Of a DNA stretch of 64,000 nucleotides, positions 9,555 to 45,500 are shown piece by piece. The notes below the pieces were generated by a model. That model did not search any database. It was not told the origin of the DNA and saw only the letters and a program-made list of their open reading frames with translations. Position numbers and translations under genes: made by a program. Source of the DNA: Naegleria gruberi (lineage: Eukaryota); NCBI GenBank assembly GCA_000004985.1, contig GG738853.1, one strand, 5' to 3'. Numbering within the stretch: the stretch's first letter is position 1; each line of letters opens with the position of its first letter.

Positions 9555-10604
9555 AATGGAGATTTATGTAAACTCATTTACAAACAAACTTCTAATGTTG
9601 CAGAAAAGGTTATTTTCCAAATATTGGAACAATCTTGTAAGGCATTAGATTATGTTCACTCTGAATTGAAAATTATTCACAGAGATGTAAAACCAAGTAA
9701 TATTTATTTTCATCAAATCATATGAGGTTAATGAAAATATTCATGTAATTTTAGCAGATTTTGGTCTTGCCAAACAAACTCAAGGATCAATCAATAACTC
9801 ATACGCTGGCACTCCTCTTTATATGAGTCCTGAATGGACTGGTTTAGGTGCTAAATATTCTTACAATACTGATATTTATTCATTAGGTGTTACAATTTAT
9901 CAAATAATGACTAAGGATTCACAAACTTCCATAAGTCATCTTTATTTAACAATGGATTCTGCAGAAGTGAAAGAGTATTTGAAGAACATGATGAATGAAC
10001 CGGCTGTTTATTCTTCAAAATTGATTGAAATTGTGTTATCAATGTTAGAAAAAGACACTAACAAGAGACCAGCAGCAAAAGACATTCTAAAAACAATAAA
10101 TTAATGAGATAGTTTAATTCTTGTTATGTTTCTATTTATTAGTTATCCTTGATTTTTCATACAACATGAGTCCACAAGTTATTGAATACACCACAAGTTT
10201 GATTAGAAATATAAGGTTGACATCCACTACACACAAATATTTCAGTAACATCATGATATTCAATTCTCCAATTTCCTCCAAAAGTTGCTTGAAACATAAT
10301 TCCCATATTAAACATTTTACCATGTGGAATAAATGATCATGATGACGATTATTCTTGCAACTCATGTGCAATCTTGAACTGCCATCAGTCCCATGTAATT
10401 CCAATAGATCCTTCACCTAGTCCAATAATTGCTCGATTTATGTTTCGTCCATAACCTACGAAAGGTTGAGGTTTGGTAATTTCCTCATTTCTCATAGGTT
10501 CCAATTGATTAATCATGTCTTTGAGAATGTATCTTCCAAATTAATCTGTAAACTTTCACTGCTTATTCCAAGTCCGAGTATTAATGAAGTATGTTCCAAT
10601 GCAA

Positions 10605-11677
10605 TCAAGATAATAAACATCCACCATCAGATTGGAATACTTTGGTATCTTTTTTGACTACCTTTTCTAATAATTCTCTCCTTTTGGTATATTCAGATCC
10701 ATTGAAAAAGTATCCTTTCTCGATAGTTCTATCGACTACAGTTTCAATATTAATATTTTCCTTACTGCTTGTTTCAAATATTTCATAATCCGAACAATCA
10801 TAACTTGTCAAAATTTCAATAACTTTTCCCTTGACTTGTTGCATATTTAGTGTAGAATCAGATTTCAAACGATCGATCTGACTGATGCAAACAGTTATTG
10901 GAACGGATTCATCATCATTAATATTAACTATTGATCTGATTACTCTATCAAAAACATCGAAATATGTTGTATGGCTATTCACAGCAAACAAAACAATGTA
11001 TCCTCTTGCTCCTTTAAGTTTTGCTAATTAATCCGAAATCAAATCGAAACCAAAGGTCAATTAAATAAATATTTACGCCCTACTAACTAACCTTGATCAT
11101 ATAAATAATAATCATGCCTAAAACCACTATCCCAAATTTCCAATTTCAACTGTCTTTGATTGAAATGAATATTCCTACGAAATGTTTCATCAATTGGATG
11201 ATCATATTCAGCAATAAATCGATCGTACAAGTATCTATAGATGAAGCAATGAATTCCAGAACCACCAGGACCAGTAATGCAAAGCTTGAACTTATTTTCA
11301 TTGGCTTTATGATGTGGCTCCTTTTCTTTCCTTCTCCTTTCAGCTTCATGCAAAATAGCAAACATTCTCTTGTAGGACTTTTTGGATAATTTCTTTATAG
11401 TTTCTTCCTTTTTATGCCAGTGATTCCACTGACAAACTGGACTGACTATTTCCTTTCCATCCTTTATTTCGGAACGTACGTGAATATATGAATACAAGAT
11501 AATTGACCAATACTTTTCCAAAAAAGAACGAAGCATGAATTGTTTGGAAATTAATTCTAAATTACACAAGTTTTTAATGTTGGCTTCCAGTCTCACAGAA
11601 GGTTGTGCAGTATTGATGATGTACTCAACAATGTGATGAAGCAACTCGGGAGGAAGATTGGCAAAGTGTGATGACAT
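10605..11677 (-). CDS. F-box-like N-terminus (LPPELLHHIVEYI...) fused to a Ras-superfamily small GTPase (G1 GPGGSG, G3 WDSG, G5 ETSSK) that ends in a CaaX prenylation box (CLLS). It has two exons with an intron at ~11024-11090 (GTTAGT...TAATTAG).
   Basis: ORFs 11087..11677 and 10605..10991 are in the same orientation, separated by a GT-AG intron that restores the frame. The Ras-like motifs and the terminal C-L-L-S were read from the translation. Confidence 0.7.
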
Positions 11678-11705: not shown

Positions 11706-13541
11706 TCACTGTTCCTCCTGTTCTTGCATTGTTCTTTTCCAGTTGCTGATGGTTTCTTGAATAGACTTGTTACTAATTTTCAAACGTTCCACTACATCAA
11801 TCATATTTTGCATGCATTGGAATTTAATTTCATCAAAGAGAGTGTTGGGAATAAGGGAAGGATCGTTAGATTGATTCAATACAAGTTCAATAGATTCATA
11901 ACGTTGTCTAATGTTAGAGATGTTCAATTCGAGTGAGCTTCCTGTTTTGAGATAGGTATTTAGTATTCTAGAGGCAACCTTCGTTTTGTGACGTTTTGGC
12001 ATTATTTTGAATTTTTCAATATCTCTGAATGCAAGAATGTCCTCAGTGCAATAACTTCTTCTTGCAAAATCAAGTATAATAACGAACGTCTTTCTATTCT
12101 TGAGCAGCATTTCAATTTCTGTTTCTGCGTATGAGTGTTGATGTTGCCAATCGTGGTAAATTGAGTATAGAACAGCCATATCTACTGATATGAATATTTC
12201 AATTAAAGAATAAATCAATAAAGTAAAACCGAACGGAATGAAGTAGTCAGTTAAGAATCTCACAATTTCAATTTGTCCACTCACTAGATAAGCTATGGCT
12301 TGGATGATTTGAATGATAATTAGAAGGATTGTTTCTCTCTTAATCAACCAAGTATCTCTATCAGCAAAAAATAGCAAAATAGCAAATGCAATTTCAATAA
12401 TAATGTAAAAAGCAGCCTCTCCAGCAAGTATGAAAATAGTATTACTCGTAGTGACGCATCCTGAATCAAAAGCAAACATGCTTACATTCCAAATGAACAT
12501 TCTCTTTCCACTTGAAGAAAATGATGCTTCATCTGCTCCTCCAAGTATTGCCCAAATAGCAAGATGAATGAAAAACGCAATAATATAAACTATTCCAATA
12601 AACTTGTAGCTCACTAGAAAGGAAAATATTTTGAATTTTCTTTCATCTAGAATTGAGTCTGTGAAATCGTCCTCAGCCGAGGTAATCCAAGTTTGAGAAT
12701 CGTTTTCAGAATCATCTCTTCTCATGTCCTTAATTTCAGCTATAATTGAAGAGTCTTCAGGAGGTGTCAATTCCAAGTTGATAGCTGTTGTATTTTGTTC
12801 GTCCGTAGTTCCTGAGCTTTTTTCATCAAATGAAACTGCTTTCTTATCCACCAAAGAGAGAGAGGAGCCAACAGTTGGTATTGTTGATGTAGATGAGAAT
12901 TTGTGTTTGGGGTCATTAATCTTACTCGATTTTTTAGACTTGTCTCTTGTTGAAGAGTTTGCTTTTTGGTCAAAGACCTTAGACTTTTCCAAATTGAGCT
13001 TGTACATAAAATAAATTCTAATGCACCTAAACACTGTCGGTAGGCAAATTGCAGGTGCAATTACAAAAAAAGAGATGGTATACAAAAAACATGGCATGAG
13101 CTTTCTTCCAATAGCGTATCTCAAACATGTGGTCATTACAAAGAATAAACTTGCAATGATCGTTAGAATCAAGTAAAGGGGATTTCTTGCCTTCACATAG
13201 CTTGAATTTCTCTTCCAAATAACACCAATAATCCCAAAACCAACAAATAGGAGATAGACAAATATGAAAATACCAGAAAATATTGGTGTGAAAATACTAT
13301 CTGGACAAATATTGTTCACCACAGTTGCGTTATATCCCTCTCTACTCAAATCTCCCAATTTAAACAATCTAGGATCGCATATTGAAGAATAACTACTATT
13401 CGTTGAAGAGTTGGTTTCCATAACATCAAGAAACAATAGCAATGAGTCAGAATCATTCTGCAGTGGAAAAGTTACAATGTTGCTCGGTATTAACCTATCA
13501 AAAATCAAAGGGAGTAAAATCTCAATTACTTCCACTAACAT
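11706..13541 (-). CDS. Seven-transmembrane protein with a C-terminal RGS (regulator of G-protein signalling) domain. This GPCR-RGS fusion architecture is as in plant RGS1.
   Basis: The 611-aa ORF has about 7 hydrophobic helices in two clusters. Its C-terminal ~130 aa match the RGS fold pattern (FARRSYCTEDILAFRDIEKFK ... ILNTYLKTGSSLELNISN ... LFDEIKFQCMQNMIDVVERL). The central loop is Ser/Asp-rich. Confidence 0.65.
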   Translation of the reverse strand: MLVEVIEILLPLIFDRLIPSNIVTFPLQNDSDSLLLFLDVMETNSSTNSSYSSICDPRLFKLGDLSREGYNATVVNNICPDSIFTPIFSGIFIFVYLLFVGFGIIGVIWKRNSSYVKARNPLYLILTIIASLFFVMTTCLRYAIGRKLMPCFLYTISFFVIAPAICLPTVFRCIRIYFMYKLNLEKSKVFDQKANSSTRDKSKKSSKINDPKHKFSSTSTIPTVGSSLSLVDKKAVSFDEKSSGTTDEQNTTAINLELTPPEDSSIIAEIKDMRRDDSENDSQTWITSAEDDFTDSILDERKFKIFSFLVSYKFIGIVYIIAFFIHLAIWAILGGADEASFSSSGKRMFIWNVSMFAFDSGCVTTSNTIFILAGEAAFYIIIEIAFAILLFFADRDTWLIKRETILLIIIQIIQAIAYLVSGQIEIVRFLTDYFIPFGFTLLIYSLIEIFISVDMAVLYSIYHDWQHQHSYAETEIEMLLKNRKTFVIILDFARRSYCTEDILAFRDIEKFKIMPKRHKTKVASRILNTYLKTGSSLELNISNIRQRYESIELVLNQSNDPSLIPNTLFDEIKFQCMQNMIDVVERLKISNKSIQETISNWKRTMQEQEEQ

Positions 13542-16860: not shown

Positions 16861-19800
16861 TCAAAAAAATAAACTCGTCATCACAACAACCAATGCCAAT
16901 AACAAGAAATTCACAGCAAACAACCTATTGCCACCACCAATTAAACTTGTGTGCTTCTTTGGAGATGTACTCACTGGTGGATTAGTACTTGATTGTGGAG
17001 TTGTCTCTGCAGTCAAATCAACAGCAAATTTAGTTGTATGATCACAGGCACACGTAACAACAGAATTGTCATAATCGATACTTGCTAGTTTACATCCTGA
17101 TGAACTCCACATCAATTTTTGTTCATCATAATATTTACATACAAGTTGTTTTTGCATGGCTGATTTACTAACCAAAACCTTCAATGTGAATTTTAGTTGA
17201 ATTGGTTTTGTAAGATTGGTTAATGCTAGAGCTTGTCCAGAACTGTAAAACTTGAGGTCCACCTGGTCAGAAACAAGATTTGTCATAGCTCTACGTCTTG
17301 ATGATGTCTTGTAGGAATATTTAACAAGACTGATGGCTGCCATTGATGAAGAATCCTTATAAATGGAAGAAATGTCAGTGGAAATGTCATCATAGACAAA
17401 GGTTGTTCCTCCTGATGATTTTAACACACTTGATATGTTAAATGATGAAACAGAAATGTTAAAAGATGAAGATTGAATATGGAGACTTGTCAAAGCTGAT
17501 GTGTTGGTTTCCACTGGATTGATGCTCATTACAAGGACAGAAGCAATGTTAGAAATTAAACTTTCGGCCTTACTTTCTGAACCATATTCATAAATATTAG
17601 AAATGATACTGACAGTAGATTGTGTTTCTTCAGTGGAAAGTTTGACTTGGGTTGAACCATTTTGTAACTTTTGGGACATGTCTGTGAGGAATGAGTCAAG
17701 CTTGGTAGAGACACTTTCCAGAGCTGTCTTGTCAACAGTTGGTGATGAAGTAACAGTTTCAAATATCTTTAAAACTTGTTGAGAATTATTGGTGTCAATG
17801 GAAAGAGTATTCACTAATTGTGTACTAACAAGTGATGAACTTGATTCATCGTAGAAGGCAACAATCTTTTCTTCACTTGACAATGAGCTGATTCTTGTAG
17901 AAAGCTCTTGACTTGTACCAGAGAATGCACTAATAATAACACTTCCACCTCTCAGCGTGTTGACATTTCCAGTGGAATCTTTTACAAACATCACTAATGG
18001 AATTGAGGATTGCTTGGTGAAGGGCAGTATTGTAGTGGCGTTTGGATACTGAGAATATTTTGTCAAGACAATATTTTCGTCCTTACTATTCACAAATCCG
18101 AATGCATATTGAAGTGGTGATATCTTTGAAGAGGCCAACCATGGTTTAGAGGAGAGTGTAAATGTTTGTGTGAGAGCAAAGCCGCTTGTTGGACTAATTG
18201 TGAAATTATTCTCAGATGCGTACGCTTTCGTCTGACCTTCCAGATAGAAACTACAATCCTCATTTGTATAACCACTATCACATTGACAATTGTTTTGATT
18301 TACACAAATTCCATTACCTGAACAAGATTTCGTCGAGTTGTACACAATTCCAAAACAAGAATGATCAGTGACTCTAGTTATTGGTCCTCTGGTTTCTACA
18401 ATAAGTTCTTGAATAGCTCTAAAACGATGTGCTTCAGAAACATCTTGATATTGATATTCCAACAAATGCCAAGAACCATATTTTGAAGGGAAGCCAACAT
18501 TTGCATAGTGACAATTTTCAACCAAGCTCAAATTAGCATACATTCTGTAGTACTTTTTGTAAATATCATACATTTTGATATCTCTATTCATGGCAATATA
18601 CTTATCTGTGGCTCCTGAGGTTTCATATCCACTGGCAATGGCCGAATATTCAGCTACAGAACTACCACTTTCATACATTCCTAGTGTAATATTATAGGAT
18701 TTTGCAACTTGAAGCTGCTGTTCAAGCATTGATTTAGTGGAAGCAAATTCATCATCACACTTTTTGAAAAGTGTATTCAAATCGGAAATGGCAACCAAAG
18801 TTCCTGAAGATTCCAAGCCACATCCGAAATAACCTGTCACTGTTAGCATAATATTGGAATGAGATTTGTAAAGATCTTGATAAGATAATATTCTAGTAGA
18901 AGTTATCGGCATAAGAGTAAAGGAAGCTGCAACAAGAGTCAATCTATTGCTTTCACTACCGAATACACTCTTCCAAATAGTAATAATTTCTTTAGAACGT
19001 TTTGAATAGAACAAGTTTCTTGCTGCCAAGGAGTCTTTAGATAATCCCAATAATTTTCCTTGCTCTTCACAATATTTACCACTATCAAAGAGTGTATTCC
19101 ATGCTTCGTTGGTGTATTCAAGATAAATTTGTACATCATTTCTCAGAGTTTGTTTAGCTAGGAGGGCAAATTGTCTGATATATTCATCGTTGGCACCATA
19201 AGGAATTGTAAACCACGGATTAGCTTTGAGAATATTACATAATTGAATCATGTATTCGTGAGCAACACCTCTTCCCATTGGTAAAGTAGATGGTGTAATT
19301 CTATCTTCCCATGTAATAATTCCTTTTTCCATAGTCCATGGCATGAATCTAATGGTCTTGAAATTTTCCAATCTCTTTAAAAAGAGTGGATGGAATGGAT
19401 TATCTTGATAGGTATTTTCAAAACCATCCATTACAATTCTTATATTTCTGATAGGATTATTTGGATTGGTTTCTTTAATTTTCATAAAGACACCATTGTC
19501 ACGAACAAGGGAAAGTGTGACTTTAATTTTCATATATCCTTTCTGGTTATTCTCAATAATTGTAGAATCGAATCCAAAGTCTAATTGACCATTTCCTTCA
19601 TAGAAAACATGGTAGATTCCTCCTGGCCATTTCTGTTGGATATCTCTCAACATTAGAGTTACTAATTGCTTTCCTTGTGCAATACTAGCTGGATAGCCAT
19701 CTGATCTTAGTTTGATTTCATTATTATAACTCCAAATATATATGCTATTCATTCCTTCCAAATCTTGGAGAATCCAAGCCCTGGCTTGTTTCATCAAATC

Positions 19801-22800
19801 AACAAAGGTCCATTGAGGAGAATAATCTACAACGCTATTCACATTCACACCAAGTTTTGATCCATCATTTGGTGAATTTGCCTTGATGGTACAGCTACTT
19901 CGTGAGTCCATTCTATATCCACTATGACATGCACAAGTACTGTTAAGGCAAATACCATTTGCACATCCCAGAGAAGGACACTTCAAACAGGCTCTACTTG
20001 TTGGATATTTCTTACAATCGATTTCACATTTTCCATTCACAAATGAGTAGCCGTAATCACAGACACAGTTTGTGGAATTGGTAGCACAATAACCAACTCC
20101 ATTACAATTACAATCAATGGAACAATCACTTCCTGTAAAACCTCTATAACAACTACACTTGTTATAATCAATACAGTTTCCATTATAGTTACATTTTGAA
20201 TCACAAGTAAATAAGGTGCATCCATAGCCGTAATATCCAGTTTGGCAGTGACATGTATAGACTGCATAAAATCCTTCTGTATGATTGAAAAGACAATTAC
20301 CTTTTCCTCCACATTGATATGTGCATCTGTAACTGTTAATATAATTGATTATCTCACAATTGGTTCCATTGTAGCCAAAGAAACAGTGGCAAGAGTCTCT
20401 GGAATCTGACAAGGCATTTGCAGCACAAACACCATGATTATTGCAGTTATCTTTACAAGTGGATGGCTTTTCATTCCAATTACAAACACTCATTGAATCT
20501 ATATAGTTTTGATAGGCAACATATTTTGGAGAAGATGAGGATGATAAGTCAGAATCTGATGATTCAATCAATCCCCAACATCCGTACTTGGAAAAGACAG
20601 ATGTGGATGTAAAATGATTGTAGGCACTTAGTTTAACTCCTGGTGCAATATTAGTTATGTTGGAGAGGTAGTATGTAAGGGCTTGTTTCATTCTTGGGTC
20701 TCTGTGAATGGTCATTGATAAATCTGTCAATTCTGTATTACCAGTATCAGTCAAAGATGAAAAATCTGGTCCACCTTCATAGAAAGCAAGTTCCATTCCA
20801 GGAGAGGATTGATTTACAATCTTGTATGTGCTTAAAAGAGCATTTCTGGAACTTGCAATGGCTGTATGAATAATAGATCCATAGAATTCCTCAAGACTGA
20901 CCAGGGAATTATCTGCCTTCTTCAAACTATCGCTCATATATGGAGCAATGGCCACAACATTGAAAGATTGATAGTAATTTCCTTCGCACAAGTAGAAAAT
21001 CTCCAAAGGGCCAGTCCAAGCTGCTTGAGCAGCAAATACCAATTTGATTCTCCTGTGATGTGATGCTCCAAACACTCCTCTGATAATATCTGCATATCTC
21101 TTGGCAGTCTTGATGTGATAACAGATTCTAGCAACTTCATAAGAACTGTAATAGTTTTGAAGTTTGGTCAATTTCATTCCTTCAATAACTCCCATTTGTT
21201 GAGCGTAACTTCCACAAGCACCTGAGGCCCAACATTCATTGCCAATTTCAATGTAGGCAGTAACATCTGGTCTGAGATAATCTCTCACATAGGTTGCCCA
21301 ATTTTCAATATATCTATCAGTGGCTCTGTGAGGTAAATTGAACCATGGATTATTTCCAAGCATATTACACAAGAGCACTTGCATTTCCATACTTACTCCT
21401 GTTTTTAGTCTGAAGGTGTAATAGGAATTGAGAGTTCTATTCTCCCAATCATAGTCTTTATCGACACCAATATTAGACCAAGGCATAAATCTAATAATTT
21501 GGTACTTTTTCAATTGTTCCAAAAAGAGAGGATGGAATGGGAAATCTTCATAGGTTTGCTCATATTTAGCCTCAAATATTCTCACATTTCTGATGGGATT
21601 CAATGGATTGGTTCTCAAAATCTTGTAAAAGACACCATTATTCATTTCAGTCTTGTGATTGTATTGGAGTTCAATTCTACCTGCATCTCTTCTCAATATT
21701 TTCTGATCTTCAAACTGGAATTCTAAAACGCCATCACCATCATAGAGGCAAATATACTTTCCATTTGGGAAGTGAGCTGCCACATCACGAACTGCAAAAG
21801 TTGCTACATTTTTAGTTATCTCCAAATATTGAGGATATCCATTTTCATCCAGTGGTACACTTTCTTGGTCATCCTCTGCCCATCCAGTACCATAGACAAA
21901 TTTCTGGACAATCCACTTTCTGGCTCTTCTTTGAATATCTATGAAAGTTACTTCTCGAGACCAATCTGCCAAACCATCAATATTGACGCCAAATTTGGTT
22001 GTATTGGAGGCACAATCTTGATATTTTGGAACTGTTATGTTACAATTTGCTCCAGAAAAACCATCAAAGCAGTGGCATGATCCATTATGGCAAACACCAT
22101 ACTTACAATCAGTACATGGTAAACGAATAGGTTTTGGAATATCGTCTGATGTGAATGGAAGACTACCATTTCCTCCTTCCAACCAAGTAAGCACAGCTCG
22201 GTATTTTGGTACAGTTTGTGGATCCTGTAGAAGACTTTCCATCACTGCTTGATAGCCACATCTACCACCTCCTCCCAAGCATCTATCTATCTTTTCCACA
22301 ATATTATTCAGAATCATTAATCCACCTCCCATTCTATGCCAACGTTTCATTACATCAACAACCATATCCTCAACAATTGGTTGTCTGAGAGCCTCAATGG
22401 AAATATCCTCTAGTCTTTGTTCCAATGGTGCTAGATCTGTCTTTTTCCATCTATTTGCCCAACCAGGTGCATGAATTCTCAAGCCTGCATCGTATAGTAT
22501 TAATGGAATTTTCAATTTGAAAGCAACTCTATTTAACAAATAGATCCAATCTATTTCGTCCTTGTAAATTTCTTGTCTGAGTAAATTGAGAACATCATCT
22601 ACTGTGTAATTGACTGAAAGGTTGACATCATAACCATTTCCATAATACTCTATACCAGTACCAACATTTCCACTCACTGCAAAAGCATCAAATAAGCTCA
22701 AGTCATCACTTGAATAGAGTGATAATACACTGTCGTAATAGGCAGGTATCATTGTAGAGAGGATATACTTGCATCGAGTATCATTCAGACCGAATACTGC

Positions 22801-23829
22801 TTTGAACGTATTGATTAATTGAATGTTCAAGTTTCTATTATTTCCACCCCAGCCCTTATCAGCTGATTGTTCAACATGTATTGTGAGAGAGGTATTTAAA
22901 TTATCTCTCACATAGGAAGCAATATGCATAATATGATCACTACTGCATGCATTTGGTATTGAAATCCAAATATCCTTAGCCAAATAATTTCCTAATTCTA
23001 CAATATATTCAATAGAAACCATTGCTTGTCCGTGTTGAGTGTAAAAAGTAGCAGGTCTTTTATCGGCCCATTCCTTATCACAATTTGTGATGGAATTTCC
23101 ATAACTCCTTCCAATCATCCATGAGGAGAATCTCAATACTGAAAATGGTTCAATAGCTCTGAGAAAGTCTGTGGAAAATGTTGAGGTTACATTCTCCTCC
23201 CTTGCCTCCTTCAAAATAACATTGTAAACATTAGGCTCTGTTACAATTAGTACTATACCCTTAGTAGAGGTATTCTGTACTGAAAATTCAAATCTATGAC
23301 TATTGACTTGTCTAACATTGGTTGCATCTCCTAAAATTGAAAAGTTTCCACTTCCTTCAAAAGTCAAAATATAATCACCTGTTGGATACTTTCCCAAAGT
23401 ACCCAATTCTGTTTGATAGCCATAACGTCTCTTATTGTATTTATTTTGAAATCCGAGAGGATAACCATCTTGTGACCAATTTGTTGTGATGGTTCCTTCA
23501 AAGTAATACGTTTTCCATTCATCAAGTGATCCAACAGGTCTCCACTCTCTTGCATGTTTAAATCTATTGGTAAATACCCACTGAATCATTTCATAATCGA
23601 TTGGTCCTAAATTAATTCCCAACATGTGTCTTGCTTCATCTCCTCGGAAGAGTAAATTTGGAGCACTTGCAAGTACTGAATGATGATGATGTAGTGTTAT
23701 TGTTGTTGTTAGTATTGTTATTATTAAGGAGAAGAGAAGACAATTAATAATTTTAGAAAATACTCGTACTGATGATGATGAATCAAGAGGAGAATACCTT
23801 CCCGATGATTCGAGGACAAAGACTTTCAT
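16861..23829 (-). CDS. A 2,322-aa secreted or type-I membrane protein. It has an N-terminal signal anchor, three copies of a ~450-aa domain (GVN(V/I)..xDxxxW.F.DxxxxARxW ... NP.NPIRN(I/V)RI ... FHPLFL..L....IRFMPW ... NE(A/C)W), clusters of EGF-like or tenascin-type Cys-rich repeats, an S/T-rich mucin-like stalk, a GPS/GAIN autoproteolysis motif (CACDHTTKFAV) and one C-terminal TM helix.
   Basis: This is a single uninterrupted ORF with an ATG at 23827-23829. I read the domain repeats and motifs from the translation. The NE(A/C)W motif is reminiscent of the NEP motif of clan GH-A glycosidases, but that is speculation. Confidence 0.75.
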   Translation of the reverse strand: MKVFVLESSGRYSPLDSSSSVRVFSKIINCLLFSLIITILTTTITLHHHHSVLASAPNLLFRGDEARHMLGINLGPIDYEMIQWVFTNRFKHAREWRPVGSLDEWKTYYFEGTITTNWSQDGYPLGFQNKYNKRRYGYQTELGTLGKYPTGDYILTFEGSGNFSILGDATNVRQVNSHRFEFSVQNTSTKGIVLIVTEPNVYNVILKEAREENVTSTFSTDFLRAIEPFSVLRFSSWMIGRSYGNSITNCDKEWADKRPATFYTQHGQAMVSIEYIVELGNYLAKDIWISIPNACSSDHIMHIASYVRDNLNTSLTIHVEQSADKGWGGNNRNLNIQLINTFKAVFGLNDTRCKYILSTMIPAYYDSVLSLYSSDDLSLFDAFAVSGNVGTGIEYYGNGYDVNLSVNYTVDDVLNLLRQEIYKDEIDWIYLLNRVAFKLKIPLILYDAGLRIHAPGWANRWKKTDLAPLEQRLEDISIEALRQPIVEDMVVDVMKRWHRMGGGLMILNNIVEKIDRCLGGGGRCGYQAVMESLLQDPQTVPKYRAVLTWLEGGNGSLPFTSDDIPKPIRLPCTDCKYGVCHNGSCHCFDGFSGANCNITVPKYQDCASNTTKFGVNIDGLADWSREVTFIDIQRRARKWIVQKFVYGTGWAEDDQESVPLDENGYPQYLEITKNVATFAVRDVAAHFPNGKYICLYDGDGVLEFQFEDQKILRRDAGRIELQYNHKTEMNNGVFYKILRTNPLNPIRNVRIFEAKYEQTYEDFPFHPLFLEQLKKYQIIRFMPWSNIGVDKDYDWENRTLNSYYTFRLKTGVSMEMQVLLCNMLGNNPWFNLPHRATDRYIENWATYVRDYLRPDVTAYIEIGNECWASGACGSYAQQMGVIEGMKLTKLQNYYSSYEVARICYHIKTAKRYADIIRGVFGASHHRRIKLVFAAQAAWTGPLEIFYLCEGNYYQSFNVVAIAPYMSDSLKKADNSLVSLEEFYGSIIHTAIASSRNALLSTYKIVNQSSPGMELAFYEGGPDFSSLTDTGNTELTDLSMTIHRDPRMKQALTYYLSNITNIAPGVKLSAYNHFTSTSVFSKYGCWGLIESSDSDLSSSSSPKYVAYQNYIDSMSVCNWNEKPSTCKDNCNNHGVCAANALSDSRDSCHCFFGYNGTNCEIINYINSYRCTYQCGGKGNCLFNHTEGFYAVYTCHCQTGYYGYGCTLFTCDSKCNYNGNCIDYNKCSCYRGFTGSDCSIDCNCNGVGYCATNSTNCVCDYGYSFVNGKCEIDCKKYPTSRACLKCPSLGCANGICLNSTCACHSGYRMDSRSSCTIKANSPNDGSKLGVNVNSVVDYSPQWTFVDLMKQARAWILQDLEGMNSIYIWSYNNEIKLRSDGYPASIAQGKQLVTLMLRDIQQKWPGGIYHVFYEGNGQLDFGFDSTIIENNQKGYMKIKVTLSLVRDNGVFMKIKETNPNNPIRNIRIVMDGFENTYQDNPFHPLFLKRLENFKTIRFMPWTMEKGIITWEDRITPSTLPMGRGVAHEYMIQLCNILKANPWFTIPYGANDEYIRQFALLAKQTLRNDVQIYLEYTNEAWNTLFDSGKYCEEQGKLLGLSKDSLAARNLFYSKRSKEIITIWKSVFGSESNRLTLVAASFTLMPITSTRILSYQDLYKSHSNIMLTVTGYFGCGLESSGTLVAISDLNTLFKKCDDEFASTKSMLEQQLQVAKSYNITLGMYESGSSVAEYSAIASGYETSGATDKYIAMNRDIKMYDIYKKYYRMYANLSLVENCHYANVGFPSKYGSWHLLEYQYQDVSEAHRFRAIQELIVETRGPITRVTDHSCFGIVYNSTKSCSGNGICVNQNNCQCDSGYTNEDCSFYLEGQTKAYASENNFTISPTSGFALTQTFTLSSKPWLASSKISPLQYAFGFVNSKDENIVLTKYSQYPNATTILPFTKQSSIPLVMFVKDSTGNVNTLRGGSVIISAFSGTSQELSTRISSLSSEEKIVAFYDESSSSLVSTQLVNTLSIDTNNSQQVLKIFETVTSSPTVDKTALESVSTKLDSFLTDMSQKLQNGSTQVKLSTEETQSTVSIISNIYEYGSESKAESLISNIASVLVMSINPVETNTSALTSLHIQSSSFNISVSSFNISSVLKSSGGTTFVYDDISTDISSIYKDSSSMAAISLVKYSYKTSSRRRAMTNLVSDQVDLKFYSSGQALALTNLTKPIQLKFTLKVLVSKSAMQKQLVCKYYDEQKLMWSSSGCKLASIDYDNSVVTCACDHTTKFAVDLTAETTPQSSTNPPVSTSPKKHTSLIGGGNRLFAVNFLLLALVVVMTSLFF

Positions 23830-29516: not shown

Positions 29517-30620
29517 ATGTTTCAACACTTAAAGGCAAACTTTCTCCATAACAAAACTTCAAAAACCGTCGGCAACAAACAATCATCCTCCCATCCATTA
29601 AATCTTCCCCGAGAATTGCTAATTGAATGTTTTTCCTATTTGGATTATTTTCATCAATTAATAATTGCAAGAGTTTGTTCCGAGTGGAGGAATATTCATC
29701 ATCATGATGAGAAATTGATGAAAAAACCTGTGATCTGTGTTGATGGAAAGGATAGGGTGCTGAATTATGAATATTTGGATAAGAGAAAACATATTGGAAT
29801 GATTGTTAGGAATTTATTTAGGAAATGGTTGATTGAGTGGATTGAAAATTCGAATTCTTATTGGAATGTTGGGAAAGTAGCTGAGAAATCGACATTGATT
29901 CAAACTCTGGATGTGAATGAGGGAAAATATGAAGAATTATTGCAATTTTCGAGGATTTTTGGTGATGTAAGAAAGATGCTAAATGTCAATAATCAAAATG
30001 AATCTCAGACAAGTTCAATATGGAATTTCTTTAATCAACTTGTAGGTTATTCGAAACATAACGCAGAGGAAGTGATTAATCAAGAGGAAAAACAAGTAGA
30101 CGATATCAAAATTGCCATGTTTGGATCAGAAATTTCACAACTTTACCACCATATGAAAAATTCCCCAAACAAACACAAATATTTGGTTGGATGTGATTTA
30201 TCCATCATTGAGTACCATTCATTGAGATCACTAACACGTTATCGATATCAAGTATTTGCAAATGCTGGATCTGACAAGTATATTGGTGTCACAAAATCCT
30301 ATTTTAAGGGTTCACATTTCATAGTTTTACTTTTTGATTCAAAATCTTCGATGGAATATTTAAAAAATCTTGATTCTTTTATCACAATGTACATGGAATT
30401 GATATTTATTCAATTGAAAAGTTCCCATTCCAATCATGTTCAAAAACATGAGGCAGAACAATTTATTTATTCCAATTTTGGAGAAGCAGTTTATTTGGAA
30501 ATTGATATTGAAAATAATCCTAAAAGTGTTGATGCCATTCTATCGTACACGGCATTGTTGAGTGATATTTTGATGGGTTGTAACTTGAATGGCAGTTGGA
30601 AGTATAAGAAAGGTCAATAA
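29517..30620 (+). CDS. F-box protein (LPRELLIECFSYLDYFHQLIIARVCSEWRN) of 367 aa.
   Basis: Single ORF with an ATG. The F-box consensus sits near the N-terminus. Confidence 0.6.
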   Translation: MFQHLKANFLHNKTSKTVGNKQSSSHPLNLPRELLIECFSYLDYFHQLIIARVCSEWRNIHHHDEKLMKKPVICVDGKDRVLNYEYLDKRKHIGMIVRNLFRKWLIEWIENSNSYWNVGKVAEKSTLIQTLDVNEGKYEELLQFSRIFGDVRKMLNVNNQNESQTSSIWNFFNQLVGYSKHNAEEVINQEEKQVDDIKIAMFGSEISQLYHHMKNSPNKHKYLVGCDLSIIEYHSLRSLTRYRYQVFANAGSDKYIGVTKSYFKGSHFIVLLFDSKSSMEYLKNLDSFITMYMELIFIQLKSSHSNHVQKHEAEQFIYSNFGEAVYLEIDIENNPKSVDAILSYTALLSDILMGCNLNGSWKYKKGQ

Positions 30621-36169: not shown

Positions 36170-39094
36170 ATGTTGAACAAGCTATCTATTTTTCAATATT
36201 TACTATTGTCAATTGTGTTTTTCACAACTAGTTACATGTGTCTTTCAACACATGCCAGTTCAGTTGCACCTTTCGTTGGTGTTTCCTCATTTGCTGGCAG
36301 TTTCTCTATTGGTGATGGTTTACCAGCTGCTGAAACTAAAGTTGAAAATGTTTATGCCTTGACAATCAATTCCAAAACTGGTGATCTTTACTTGACTGAT
36401 AACAATAGAGTTCGTAAAGTTTCGTCCACTAACAATATCATGTCCACATTCGCTGGAACAAACAACCAAGTTAATCCTGAAGATGGTCAACCAGCTGTTA
36501 ATACACCACTTGCAGAACCAAGAGGATTAGAAATTAGCTCAAATGGTGAGGTTTACATTGCAGATTATTCCACATGCAAGATTAAAAAAGTTTCCTCTCA
36601 AGGAATTATGACAACCATTGCAGGAACAGGTCCAGGACAAAACAATGATAGAAGATTAGTTTCAGTTTATACTGGAGATGGAGCTTTTGCTAATGAAACT
36701 CAATTGTCATTCCCTCAAGCAATTGCTTTCCATCCAATTACTGGTGAATTACACATAGCCGAAACTCAAAGTTACAAAATTAGAAAGATTACTTTAGAGG
36801 GTAGAATTGCAACAGTTGTTGGAAGTGGACAAAAAGGTCAAGAATCACCAGATGGTGTTTTGGCTGTCAATGCAATTATTGGAGCTCCAGGAAATATCAT
36901 CTTTGATTCGATTGGAAATATGTATCTATCCGATAGATCATTTCACAAAGTTAGAAAGGTCCTTACCAATGGTACCATTGTTACAATTGCTGGAAATGGT
37001 ATGAGTGCCTATAATGGTGATGGTATCTTGGCTGTTTCTGCTTCACTTTTCAGACCAAGTGGATTGGCCCTTAGCTCCACAGGTGAGCTCTATATTGCCG
37101 AAAGTTATGGTCATAGAATTCGTAAAGTCTTGACAAATGGTACAATTATTACTATTGCTGGAACTGGAGTTGCTGGTTATGAAGGAGATGGAGGTTTAGC
37201 TGTAAATGCTCTCTTGGATGCACCAGAATCAATCTTTTTGAGTTCTGATAATTATCTCTTGATTTCTGATTTTGGAAATAAGAGAATTCGTAAAATTTCT
37301 CTATTGGATGGAACTATTTCAACTATTGCAGGAGATGGTTTGGGAGATGGAAAAGCTGCCTCAGTTTATGGTATTTTGAGATATCCAATTGATGTTAAAA
37401 AGGGACCAAATGGAATTCTGATTGCAGATTCTGGTAATGCGAGAGTGAGAAGTGTTTCTAATGGTGGAATTATTTCAACCATTGCAGGTTCAGGTACAAA
37501 TGGTAACCCACAACTTAGAGCCCTCAGAGAGCTTGCTACAAAGGCAAAGTTCGGTACTACTTATGCAATTACAACAAGATCAGATAATGGTGATGTCTAT
37601 GTGATAGATGATACCAATAACAAAATTTTCAAAATTTCTAACCAAGATGGTTCAATTACAGCAATTATTGGTGATGGCAATTATGGATTTACAGAGGATG
37701 GAAGTATTGCAGAGGGTTCATCAGTTGGAGGTTTAAGTGGTGTTGCACTCAATTCATTGGGTGAGGTCATCTTTACAGAGTCCAATAGAATTCGTAAAAT
37801 TTTGACAAATGGTACACTTGTTACCATTTCAGGATATGGAAATCTTCAAGATTCAGGTCAAGGATTTAGTGGAGATGGAGATTTGGCTCAATATGCTTCC
37901 CTTTCTTCTCCAGGTCGTTTATTCATCCACTCAGATGACATTTACTTTGCCGATCAAGACAATTACAGATTCCGTAAGATCTTTGCTAATGGTACAATCA
38001 CAACTATTGCAGGAACAGGATATGGAGATTATGGAGCTGATGATATTTTGGCCACAGAAACATATCTTGCAAGACCAACAGATATTGCCATGAATTCGAA
38101 AGGAGAATTAATCATTTCTGACGCTAAAAGAATTAGAAAAATTGACTTGAATGGAATAATTGTTACTCTGGCTGGAAGTAACGTTGCTGGTTTTTCAGGA
38201 GATGGTGGTCCAGCTGCTGATGCAACCTTTGGAACTTTGGGAGGAATCTATCTTGATTCGAATGATGATATTTATGTTAGTGATCCTGATAATCATAGAA
38301 TTAGAAAGATTTCCCTCATGTGCCCAACCGATTATGCATTGAATGGTAGTGAGTGTATTCCAGTATGTTTTGGAGTTGTTAGCAATGATCCATCAGTTTG
38401 TTCTGGTAAGGGTTCATGTACTCAAAACAATACTTGTCAATGCTCACCTTCCTATTATGGAGCCAATTGTGATTCCTTCAATTGTTCTGGAATTTCCTCC
38501 AATTCAACACTTGTTTGTTCTTCCCATGGTGTTTGCTCTTCTCCAGATACTTGCAATTGTGAAAATGGATATTATGGAAAGAATTGTGAATCATTTAATT
38601 GTTTTGGTGTCAATTCTCAAAATTCCACTAACGTTTGCTCAGCACAAGGAAATTGCACATCTCCAGATAAGTGTAATTGTAAGACTGGATATTTGGGAAG
38701 TAATTGTGAAATGTTCAATTGTTTTGGTGTCAATTCTCAAAATTCCTCCAATGTTTGTTCATCACAAGGAAATTGCACATCTCCAGATAAGTGTAATTGT
38801 AAGACTGGATATTTTGGAAGTAATTGCGAATCATTTAATTGTAAGGGTATTAAGAATAGTGATTCGAGTGTTTGTTCATCTAGAGGTCAATGTATTTCAC
38901 CAGATAATTGTAAATGTACTACAGTTAATAGTTATGGAGTGAATTGTGAATTCATTGTCGAAGGAAAGATTTCAAATATCACAGCTACAAAATCCAATGC
39001 TAGATTGAATGATGGTTCTTCAATTAAGACTCCTTATATGTTGTTGGTTACAACTTTGTCAATTATCATCATGTCAATTTTCTTGATTCTTTAA
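36170..39094 (+). CDS. A 974-aa surface protein. It has a signal peptide, about 13 NHL repeats (probably two beta-propellers; recurring ...IRK(V/I)...NGTIxTIAG.G), five tenascin-type EGF modules (C.G.G.C...C.C..GY.G.NC..FNC) and a C-terminal hydrophobic tail (GPI anchor or TM).
   Basis: Single ORF. The repeats were read from the translation. ORFs 38343..38942 and 37809..38093 are overlapping-frame artefacts. Confidence 0.75.
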   Translation: MLNKLSIFQYLLLSIVFFTTSYMCLSTHASSVAPFVGVSSFAGSFSIGDGLPAAETKVENVYALTINSKTGDLYLTDNNRVRKVSSTNNIMSTFAGTNNQVNPEDGQPAVNTPLAEPRGLEISSNGEVYIADYSTCKIKKVSSQGIMTTIAGTGPGQNNDRRLVSVYTGDGAFANETQLSFPQAIAFHPITGELHIAETQSYKIRKITLEGRIATVVGSGQKGQESPDGVLAVNAIIGAPGNIIFDSIGNMYLSDRSFHKVRKVLTNGTIVTIAGNGMSAYNGDGILAVSASLFRPSGLALSSTGELYIAESYGHRIRKVLTNGTIITIAGTGVAGYEGDGGLAVNALLDAPESIFLSSDNYLLISDFGNKRIRKISLLDGTISTIAGDGLGDGKAASVYGILRYPIDVKKGPNGILIADSGNARVRSVSNGGIISTIAGSGTNGNPQLRALRELATKAKFGTTYAITTRSDNGDVYVIDDTNNKIFKISNQDGSITAIIGDGNYGFTEDGSIAEGSSVGGLSGVALNSLGEVIFTESNRIRKILTNGTLVTISGYGNLQDSGQGFSGDGDLAQYASLSSPGRLFIHSDDIYFADQDNYRFRKIFANGTITTIAGTGYGDYGADDILATETYLARPTDIAMNSKGELIISDAKRIRKIDLNGIIVTLAGSNVAGFSGDGGPAADATFGTLGGIYLDSNDDIYVSDPDNHRIRKISLMCPTDYALNGSECIPVCFGVVSNDPSVCSGKGSCTQNNTCQCSPSYYGANCDSFNCSGISSNSTLVCSSHGVCSSPDTCNCENGYYGKNCESFNCFGVNSQNSTNVCSAQGNCTSPDKCNCKTGYLGSNCEMFNCFGVNSQNSSNVCSSQGNCTSPDKCNCKTGYFGSNCESFNCKGIKNSDSSVCSSRGQCISPDNCKCTTVNSYGVNCEFIVEGKISNITATKSNARLNDGSSIKTPYMLLVTTLSIIIMSIFLIL

Positions 39095-42513: not shown

Positions 42514-45500
42514 ATGACCACTCATTCCTTGGGAAGTAATGGAAGCTATGCTGTTGAGGTTGATGATCACACACCGAATATATCGGCCTCAATAGGGTTG
42601 GCCGGTATGCCAAGAGGATCAGCCTCAGTACTTTCAGCAGATAATCAAACTTCACTCACAGCTGGAGCAGCAGCTTCACTGTTAAACGACGGCGCCTCTA
42701 TGTGGAATTCATTCGAGGAGAGTGCCACTAACTTTATGTTAAATATTTACGAGAAGACAAAAATTCACCAAACAAATTGGTATAACTTTACCTATAACCT
42801 AGTATTGTACATTTATCTCCTTTGGACAATGATGTTTCTTCCCGGATTGGCAGACGAAGAATATAATTGGGGAGAATATTCGCATTGGATCTTTAAGGCA
42901 GCAAATTATCCAGTTTCTCTATCCCTAAACTTGGTTTCGTATGAAGTCATTATTGTGATATTTTGCTGTTTTGTCCTTCTAATATGTGTCTACTTTATTC
43001 TGTTTTTTGTTGGCTATAGGGCAAGCTTACTAGCAAACAAGCACTGGAAAAAGATCAAGCTTGCCATAAGAATCATTCATGGATTTCTCACACTTACTTC
43101 CTTAATTTATACCTATGTGTTTGGTGCCTTTATAGATTGCAATTATGGAACCTCTGTAAATTTAGATGGTTATGATAGACCTGTTGAAGTATTGAGGAGG
43201 CACCCAACCATTGCCTGCAGTGGTGCAGTTAATTCAACTCTCATTTCTGTCGGTTCTATATTCTTCATGTTACTACTTGTTATTCAGTTGATCTCTGTTT
43301 TAACAATGTCGGAGGATAATCCGAGTGGCAAGAATGCCTTTGCAACAGACAAGGTCTACTACTTGTTTCCATTCATTGCAACACAATGCATTTACATTAT
43401 ACTAGTTTGTGCAATACCTCCAACCTATAACTATGTCAAGCCGGTTATTTACCTTGCCTTATGTATTCTACATGTGCCCTACCATTTGTGGTTGTTACCT
43501 TATTTTAAAAGAGTGGAGAATACTCTCTTCTTTGGCTTTGTTGGTGCCAGATTGGGAGGAGCTGTTGGTTTTCTGGTCTCTAGCTTGGTCTCTACTGATG
43601 ATTCAAATTGGACTCTTGGTTTGGGCATGATGGGTCTCACGATTGGCCTTATGCTTGTATGCTTTGTAGTTTTTGTTGTTGCAGCAGAGATTTATATTGG
43701 TATTCTATACAGTTCTATCAGAAGAGGTGTTATTCAAACTATTAAGGTTTCGGTTGATTTTAGTCAAGCCCAAACAGTCAGATCCTCCATCGAAAGAGAA
43801 GCATCTGGTCTCTATCAAAAATTTGAAAAGGATGGTAAACTGAGAGCCTTCAACCTCTTCTTGAAATTCTCAATGAGATCAGGTAGAAAGGCTTTTGGAG
43901 ATTTTCAACTTTCTGATGTTGAAATTGCTCTTGCTTTGATTAAGGGTGTTTCATCTCAAAAGTGTGCCAATAATGTTGATATTCTGATTACCTCAGCGTT
44001 GGTTGTAGCTTACTTTTTACCAAACTTCACCAGTGTCATACTGGCAGGTGGTATTGTCAGAAAGGTTGCCAAGCTCAAGTCCAATCCATTGAAAAAGTAC
44101 ATTATTACCCAAAGAACAAAGGAAATTGAATTCCTCAGTGGAGAAGACTTGTCTGGTAAGAACATTATGGAAATTAAGAATATTATTGGAAGACTGGAAA
44201 AGAAGCAAGAATTGGTTCTCCTTCTTCACAAATCATTCTGGAAGGAAATGATCAATGAATCTTTAGAAATTACCAAGATTGAAACAATCAACAGAAAGAT
44301 TGCTGAATTGGTGCACTCTTGTCAAAGCTCTTATGATATTCTCATATCCAATTACAACAATGAAAAGTCAGTGATTAGATCATATGCCAGATTTGTTGAA
44401 GACTACAAGTTTGATCCAGAAAAAGCTCAAGAAATGTACCACGAAGCAAACATTATTGAAGAGGAAGAAGCTGTCAATAGAAGACATCAATTATCAAAAA
44501 CCTTAAAGAACAAGTATACATCCAATCGTGTAGTGCCACTTCCAAATCAATTCTCTGTAGCCTCTAATATTAGGGGAGGTGGTGGTGGTTTTGAAAGTGA
44601 AGATGAAGATAAGGGATACTTTGAAAAGATCGACATGAACAAGCAAGGCCACTCTTCTGACTCTAGATTAGATGACATGGACTTTGAAAATGAAAAGTTT
44701 GAAGGTGTAGAGGAAAACGCAGCCACAGCACAACAAAAGAAGGAATTTCTCTTTAGAACTGCACTTTCATCTTCCATGTATAATAAGCCTCAATTTATTA
44801 CCTTTGTTGTTTTTGCTTCAGTTTCATTGATCATACTAACAATTGGTCTTATCCTTGGATTGGTGTTCTCTACTGGTGTAACATCTGATATTGCTCTTTC
44901 AAATGATGTGTGTATTCCTGCTTCTGTTCCTCTCTCAGTTCTTATGTACATTAGAAAAAAGCAATTGCACGATAATATTAAGGAATACTCAATGTCATGG
45001 AATACAGAAAACACAGCCAGAGTAGATAAGCAATGTAACAAGCTCTCAAATCTGTATTCTATTGGTATGAATACTTTCTCTGAATCAGTCCGATCTGACT
45101 ATACTAGAGGCACCAGATTACTCAAACAACCTGTGTTGATTTATTCCTCAACAAATACTTCAGAATACACTGGTTACTCTACATCCAGAAATTCGACTAT
45201 TGCAGAAATTACAAAAGCATTGGTAAAAATGTGTAGTGCCTATGATAACTACTCAGAGGAAAGATATAAGCAAACAGTATCTGATTACAATTTTATGTTC
45301 CTTTATCAAAACAGAATAAGTTTTTCCTCATCTTATGAAAGCTTTTGCTCTGAATATCTGGACAGAAATGGAGAAAAATCCTCAACATACAGAACTATCT
45401 TTTTAATCTATTACATTTCCACAACAGCTTTATATATTCTTAGTGCCTTCTCAGTGATTGCATTCACTAGATACCACCTTACCTCACTGAATGATTCTAT

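Follow-up and report, generated by a model that had tools for sequence, protein, structure and literature searches.

A Naegleria gruberi Ras-family protein with an F-box-like N-terminal extension, a degenerate G domain and a predicted CaaX box

In RhoBTB proteins, which are Cul3 adaptors, a BTB domain is joined to a G domain of the Rho type that probably does not cycle in the normal way. RhoBTB is present in Naegleria (Herman et al., PMC8296547), and the F-box is the most frequent extra domain on the Ras-superfamily GTPases of this genus (Herman et al. 2021, BMC Biol, PMC8296547, Suppl. Material 4). As described in the same study, three Rab-like clades carry a conserved N-terminal extension that "in at least some" is identifiable as an F-box, one fusion clade has a CaaX motif, and GTPase-dependent ubiquitination has already been proposed (PMC8296547). 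Outside this genus, Rab40b/c together with Cullin5 ubiquitylate localised substrates (PMC8129794, PMC9070665); the idea of a GTPase domain coupled to a cullin-RING ligase is not new. Here, we describe a gene at positions 10605-11677 on the minus strand of a 64,000-nucleotide (nt) stretch of Naegleria gruberi DNA (contig GG738853.1, assembly GCA_000004985.1), which was analysed as a whole and is called the window below. The gene encodes an F-box-like N-terminal region, a Ras-type G domain with several degenerate motifs and a C-terminal CLLS. Its product may best be explained as a farnesylated adaptor of the Skp1-Cul1-F-box (SCF) type with a divergent F-box head and a dead Ras partner module, a reading to which we assign a probability of roughly 0.55. 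What is new relative to the literature is that Ras-family members bear an extension too, that this extension is F-box-like, and that the published model of the gene is N-terminally truncated. A first-pass annotation of the locus had described a fusion of an F-box with a Ras-like GTPase carrying a CaaX box; the observation itself is confirmed, and the interpretation attached to it is partly supported.

Gene structure and start of the protein

The positions 10605 and 11677 are the exact bounds of a minus-strand coding sequence, which starts with ATG (11677-11675) and stops with TGA (10607-10605). Two minus-strand open reading frames (ORFs) of 196 and 128 amino acids (aa), lying in different frames, are joined by a 68-nt intron, giving a spliced product of 1005 nt, or 334 aa. 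Exon 1 (11092..11677) contains codons 1-195 and the first base of codon 196, and its ATG is preceded by an A-rich context, AAAAAAATG, that recurs at the start of two paralogs; an in-frame TAA lies two codons 5' of the ATG, at 11683-11681. The intron (11024..11091) is of the GT..AG type, reads GTTAGT...TTAG and is in phase 1, and exon 2 (10605..11023) runs from the remainder of codon 196 to codon 334, including the TGA stop. The splice junction, ...LYDQ/A/KLKGARGY..., is the same as in the manually corrected published model of XP_002680544.1, and the position and phase of the intron are kept in two paralogous loci, L001 and L002. The reconstruction of L001 equals the NCBI protein XP_002678448.1 (341 aa) in length, splice junction and C-terminus, and the few residue differences between them would be as expected for a different strain. 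On this sequence evidence, 10605-11677 is a real two-exon gene, and the two-exon structure given by the first-pass annotation is well supported.

From Met105 to the stop, across the junction, the protein is letter for letter the corrected XP_002680544.1 of Table S8 (PMC8296547). In that table, the entry is classed as 'Ras', has neither an additional domain nor a pseudogene mark, and begins at Met105 with MFAILHEAERRR. The codons upstream of Met105 behave like those of a protein. The N-terminal 128 residues are 50-53% identical to the paralogs, and comparison of the corresponding codons with a paralog locus gave a proportion of nonsynonymous differences (pN) of 0.28 against a proportion of synonymous differences (pS) of 0.74, a pattern like that of the G-domain codons (pN 0.21, pS 0.57). 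Among 1.84 billion representative proteins, only nine matched an N-terminal profile, and all of these combine the extension with a Ras-like domain; the named ones are N. gruberi, N. lovaniensis and N. fowleri proteins. Likewise, the extension lies in the same single protein in the NCBI models of the paralogs XP_002678448.1 and XP_002668642.1 and in the N. lovaniensis and N. fowleri homologs. Since all nine profile matches share the extension, the fusion is real for the family, and the joining of extension and GTPase in one protein, as first annotated, stands. The gene is part of a Naegleria-specific clade of Ras-family paralogs with an N-terminal extension of ~125 aa.

The patterns of divergence indicate that the extension is coding and under purifying selection, and the sequence places the start of the full ORF at 11677 and not at Met105. 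The published XP_002680544.1 model is very probably without its first 104 residues, and the practical consequence is a curated entry that appears too short by that length. It would otherwise have to be assumed that the product begins at Met105, that the 104 upstream codons are an untranslated leader, and hence that there is no fusion. That view, which we consider very improbable, draws on the manually corrected model and on the spacing of the genes, since only 28 nt separate the stop of an upstream gene with an RGS domain (11706) from the ATG at 11677. The promoter and 5' end must with such spacing overlap the RGS gene, which is also a point against the longer protein preferred here. Against a start at Met105 are the frame, open from 11677, the G-domain-like constraint on the N-terminal codons, the protein conservation reaching into N. 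lovaniensis and N. fowleri, the conserved A-rich start context, and the presence of the extension in both paralogs' NCBI models.

When the full protein was used as query in a word-indexed search, only three matches came up, all of them exon-1 ORFs from one metagenome sample, ERR1078381 (ENA/Logan, PRJEB11402); no paper turned up for the accession of this project. The sample contains a copy of the locus that is 98-99% identical, together with both paralogs (L001, L002 and L003 in all), and thus holds DNA of an N. gruberi-like amoeba. Compared with the window, the downstream region of this copy is 13.5% different, and the genes ~1%.

The F-box-like N-terminal region

The F-box-like region comprises residues 5-65 (11483..11665, minus strand, as for all features of the gene) and reads LPPELLHHIVEYI ... 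LCNLELISKQF ... YWSIIL. It is interrupted at residues 22-33 (11579..11614) by a 12-residue insertion, NTAQPSVRLEAN, which is located in the helix 1-helix 2 loop and appears as a gap in the hhalign alignment; across family members, the insertion in this loop is 6-24 residues long. The hhalign comparison of 13 family N-termini with ten reference F-boxes, all of which match the Pfam F-box strongly, gave a probability of 93.2%, a P value of 3e-7 and a score of 35.1 over 45 columns, and the match covers the whole F-box with the single 12-residue gap. In control comparisons, the reversed query scored 8.8 and the best of 100 column shuffles 16.8. By profile-profile comparison, the region accordingly shows the elements that define an F-box of ~45 residues, i.e., LPxE followed by a hydrophobic helix 1, helices 2-3 and [VI][CS]K....

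Other searches point in the same direction. A hidden Markov model (HMM) of the ten F-boxes ranked this ORF second among the 334 ORFs of the window, after a canonical F-box gene (29517). Weak Pfam matches of 12 family N-termini fell to F-box-like (6), F-box (3), F-box-like_2 (2) and Elongin_A (2). When the insertion was deleted in silico, the sequence reached 25.3 bits with PF12937 (cut-off 24.3) and 23.5 bits with PF00646 (cut-off 20.5), and eight of ten family sequences treated in this way matched F-box families; the boundaries of the deletion were derived from the F-box alignment, which biases the test toward an F-box answer. Two AlphaFold2 models were made, one of residues 1-128 of the window protein and one of a full-length paralog of 54% identity. 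The first (predicted local distance difference test score 70) has helices at 10-23, 31-44 and 50-64.

Several results speak against an F-box. The native sequence stays under every Pfam F-box cut-off, with 17.3 bits against a cut-off of 24.3 for PF12937 (E 0.004) and 12.4 bits against 20.5 for PF00646, and the paralogs score similarly. Profile hmmsearch of PDB sequences, using N-terminal alignments of 3 and 12 sequences, found no F-box protein, and the matches it did return (ACE, parafibromin and a proteasome subunit) were at chance level only. Foldseek found nothing in the PDB at E < 1 for the N-terminal AlphaFold2 model, and the structural evidence for the whole protein comes from the paralog model and not from the protein's own 334-aa sequence. 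In the insertion-deleted alignment, only the first ~32 of 43-47 profile positions are well matched. In addition, the loop insertion could disturb a Skp1 interface, and the curators of the gene family put no F-box flag on its Ras-family members. The F-box-like motif of the first-pass annotation is therefore upheld by the presence of LPPELLHHIVEYI and by the profile-profile probability, and is not upheld by the native Pfam scores.

Downstream of this region, the remainder of the extension (residues 66-128, 11294..11482) forms a linker with a beta hairpin, two helices and a conserved KKS.KR.FAIL.E.ERR motif, and contains Met105, at which the published model begins. The sub-threshold native scores, the PDB profile searches and Foldseek comparison without F-box matches, and the presence of a 6-24-residue insertion in the helix 1-helix 2 loop of all members would also suit a Naegleria-specific helical domain, F-box-like only in its LPxEL helix. 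Such a domain would not bind Skp1; packed against the G domain of its own chain, it would regulate that domain or bind partners. The extension, at ~125 aa, far exceeds an F-box and adds the hairpin and two further conserved helices, and the full-length paralog model reaches a predicted template modelling score of 0.74, suggesting fixed packing of both halves. Set against these points are the profile-profile match over the whole F-box and its controls, and we consider a helical domain of this kind considerably less likely than an F-box. Judging from the sequence comparisons, the N-terminal region is likely to be a divergent F-box whose loop is lengthened by an insertion; the helices behind it would form a linker like that of other F-box proteins.

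A Ras fold with degenerate nucleotide-binding motifs

The Ras-family G domain occupies residues 131-297 (10719..11287, interrupted by the intron) and matches Pfam PF00071 with 60 bits against a cut-off of 21.6 (E 2.2e-16). Its best relatives in the PDB are Rap1A (E 3e-12), Rab3 and K-Ras, with E values around 1e-12. The Ras fold is complete, and the complete small-GTPase core that had been annotated is thus found far beyond chance. Family membership is given by Pfam; the assignment to a Ras subfamily, for which the first-pass annotation had proposed an HMM search, is soft, as Rab3 and Rab9 score nearly equally. Ras/Rap-like features are the effector region YDHPIDETF and a CaaX box with a single Cys; the KGARG stretch and a Trp preceding G3 presumably resemble Rab motifs. 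Herman et al. (PMC8296547) place the gene under Ras.

Alignment to H-Ras shows changes in four of the five nucleotide-binding motifs. The G1 motif, or P-loop, reads GPGGSGIH (residues 136-143, 11249..11272) in place of GAGGVGKS, so that Lys16 is replaced by Ile142 and Ser17 by His143. In switch I, the equivalent of Ras Thr35 is Pro161 (11195..11197; YDHPIDETF vs YDPTIEDSY). G3 is DSGFR (residues 183-187, 11117..11131) instead of DTAGQ, with Gly60 changed to Phe and Gln61 to Arg, and G4 is SQID (residues 243-246, 10872..10883) instead of NKxD, keeping the Asp alone. G5, ETSSK (residues 279-283, 10761..10775), is retained and close to the ETSAK of Ras. The atypical GPGGSG at residues 136-141 had been noticed in the first-pass annotation, and the defect is wider than noted there, with G2, G3 and G4 degenerate too.

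Within the Ras superfamily, the P-loop Lys and Ser/Thr are needed for binding of phosphate and Mg2+. With these residues and the switch-I Thr lost, no productive binding of nucleotide and Mg2+ would be expected, and the G domain, which keeps the G fold and has lost consensus nucleotide-binding and catalytic residues, is probably a pseudoGTPase; its sequence lacks the residues for phosphate and Mg2+ binding and for guanine specificity. The altered P-loop is a conserved one. GPGGSGIH is identical in the two N. gruberi paralogs XP_002678448.1 and XP_002668642.1, with an overall identity of only ~50%, which argues for a selected dead state and not for decay. More distant family members have an intact GxGGVGK[ST] P-loop, and the P-loop is also intact in the N. 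lovaniensis family member XP_044550336.1. Further 'Ras' entries of Table S8, e.g., XP_002680941.1 and XP_002676200.1, have the same LP.E[LI]...ISKQF...W extension with an intact GxxGVGK[ST] and without an F-box flag. The extension, being present on Ras entries with an intact P-loop, is older than the P-loop loss in the GPGGSG subclade.

It may be asked whether the domain still works as a nucleotide switch through non-canonical contacts, so that its GTP state gates ligase recruitment. The intact fold, the retained G5 ETSSK and G4 Asp, the NKID still present at G4 of the paralog XP_002678448.1 and the GxxGVGK[ST] retained by more distant family members are in line with this. The joint losses of the P-loop Lys and Ser, the switch-I Thr (to Pro), the DxxG Gly (to Phe), Gln61 (to Arg) and the NK of G4 (to SQ), in view of the established requirement for the P-loop residues in the superfamily, make it improbable. 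The coupling of GTP state to ubiquitin-ligase recruitment, which had been put forward for this gene, is correspondingly unlikely for this protein, as its nucleotide-binding residues are gone; GTP-gated recruitment would be more plausible for family members whose P-loop is intact.

The same degenerate motifs, together with the subtelomeric location and the birth-and-death evolution and pseudogenes noted in related Naegleria GTPase clades (Herman et al., PMC8296547), could suggest a Ras paralog copy that is turning into a subtelomeric pseudogene. Decay is hardly credible here: the ORF and splice sites are intact, the coding sequence is under purifying selection, three paralogs sharing only ~50% identity have the very same degenerate P-loop, and Table S8 carries no pseudogene flag for the gene. 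Moreover, comparison of the window with a 98%-identical allele from a second strain (L003) gives a divergence of 0.8% in the exons, 2.9% in the intron and 13.5% in the downstream flank.

The C-terminal CaaX box

The protein ends in CLLS (residues 331-334, 10608..10619), directly before the stop, where the first-pass annotation had placed a CaaX box. Where the X of a CaaX box is Ser, farnesylation is expected, and CLLS is a predicted prenylation signal of the farnesyl type. Other family members end in CSIS, CGLM, CCVL and CILC, i.e., the CaaX box is conserved in the family.

Possible role as a membrane-bound ligase adaptor

In the SCF-type adaptor proposed above, the first ~65 residues would form a divergent F-box with the 12-residue insertion in its helix 1-helix 2 loop, and the helices that follow would be the usual F-box linker. 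A farnesyl group on Cys331 would anchor the protein to the membrane, where its F-box-like head would bring in Skp1/Cul1. In the resulting SCF-type ubiquitin ligase, the part of the nucleotide-independent 'dead Ras' domain would be to bind substrates or partners, and not to act as a GTP switch. It could further be speculated, though this is more doubtful than the adaptor role itself, that the GPGGSG subclade (this gene, XP_002678448.1 and XP_002668642.1) comprises farnesylated, nucleotide-dead 'decoy Ras' proteins, each serving a membrane-bound SCF ligase as substrate receptor. Their preserved Ras-type effector surface would then constitutively capture Ras/Rap effectors or regulators for ubiquitination.

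If the N-terminus is a working F-box, the GTPase-linked SCF receptors of Naegleria also include members of the Ras family, and at least one subclade employs a dead G domain purely for binding. If the decoy idea is true as well, it would amount to a mode of damping Ras signalling undescribed in any organism and would extend F-box-GTPase fusions to the Ras family. A working F-box on these proteins would bear on the uses of pseudoGTPases and on how amoebae regulate very large Ras/Rho/G-alpha networks. A literature search for the F-box together with a pseudoGTPase found no paper.

Genomic surroundings

The window has ~35% G+C and long, mostly intron-less ORFs. It opens with ~400 nt of a (CCCAAA)n telomere repeat (1-400), and the gene lies ~10 kilobases (kb) from the chromosome end, i.e., in a subtelomeric position. 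Short degenerate repeat tracts occur at 487-510 and 2257-2290, with an assembly gap of 1.2 kb (Ns, 973-2156); beyond the gap, the stretch 2330-2400 is a repeat of 520-590, pointing to the duplication of a subtelomeric unit.

Upstream of the gene, a 611-aa ORF (11706-13541, minus strand) has a C-terminal RGS domain (PF00615, E 4e-5) and long hydrophobic stretches, and its product is apparently a multi-pass membrane protein, judging from these stretches. The two paralogs have no RGS gene upstream, so that the RGS/Ras pair is one of adjacency and not of conserved pairing. A single spliced gene made of both was considered and rejected, as the frames differ and the paralogs lack the upstream RGS gene; any RGS-Ras splice would, in addition, delete the conserved LPPE helix. 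Overlapping plus-strand ORFs (e.g., 11114-11389) are likewise unsupported as genes, the minus-strand coding sequence being under purifying selection there; the ORFs themselves were not separately tested. On the other side, the C-terminal exon of a protein kinase (9823-10104, plus strand; Pkinase E 3.6e-11) converges with the 3' end of the Ras-like gene, the two stops lying ~500 nt apart.

Further into the window, 16861-23829 (minus strand) and 36170-39094 (plus strand) each encode a large teneurin-like protein with many EGF and NHL repeats. The first of them (2322 aa) has a GPS motif (proteolysis site of G-protein-coupled receptors) near its C-terminus, which suggests a receptor like the adhesion G-protein-coupled receptors. 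A 1776-aa ORF at 42514-47844 (plus strand) combines TPR-like repeats, PAS and an adenylate/guanylate cyclase catalytic domain (E 7e-54). Finally, three consecutive long ORFs at 51921-63236 (minus strand) make up a DNA-PKcs-like kinase (N-terminal, CC1/2, CC3, CC5, FAT, PI3/4-kinase and FATC regions), presumably a single gene interrupted by short introns or changes of frame.

Comparison with known systems

The closest described systems are the F-box-GTPase fusions of Naegleria itself (Herman et al., PMC8296547), with which the gene shares the organism, an N-terminal extension placed before a Ras-superfamily G domain and membership in lineage-specific expanded families. The fusion had been called uncommon at first annotation; this holds for eukaryotes generally, but such fusions are frequent in Naegleria (PMC8296547), and the unusualness was overstated. 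The present gene differs from those fusions in being catalogued as 'Ras' without an F-box, with a model that starts at Met105, in having a probable F-box that is more divergent and carries a loop insertion, and in having lost the P-loop Lys and Ser. A gene 18 kb away in the same window (29517-30620, plus strand) joins a canonical F-box (residues 28-72; PF00646, E 4.8e-8) to a degenerate Ras/Roc-like half (E 0.003-0.007) with 'MFGSEISQ' at the place of the P-loop, and it resembles the F-box Rab-like proteins of Herman et al.

Compared with canonical H-Ras and Rap1, the protein has replaced residues in G1, G2, G3 and G4 and has gained a 128-aa N-terminal extension. Outside Naegleria, the nearest functional analogues, by analogy of architecture, are Rab40 and RhoBTB. 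Like Rab40, the protein unites a small-GTPase domain, a cullin-RING adaptor motif and a C-terminal prenylation signal (here, both predicted) in one polypeptide, and the motif of Rab40 binds Elongin C, which is Skp1-like. Rab40 differs in that its SOCS box follows the G domain and recruits Cul5, forming CRL5 ligases, and in that its Rab domain works as a switch. The motif of the present protein is F-box-like and precedes the G domain, so that SCF/Cul1 would be expected; its G domain is probably nucleotide-dead, and no homology to Rab40 is shown beyond the G domain. The likeness to RhoBTB consists in an atypical G domain fused to a cullin-adaptor module, which is putative here. RhoBTB differs in that its adaptor is a BTB domain and not an F-box, in its much larger size, in the absence of a CaaX box, and in belonging to the Rho family, where the present protein has a Ras/Rap-like effector region.

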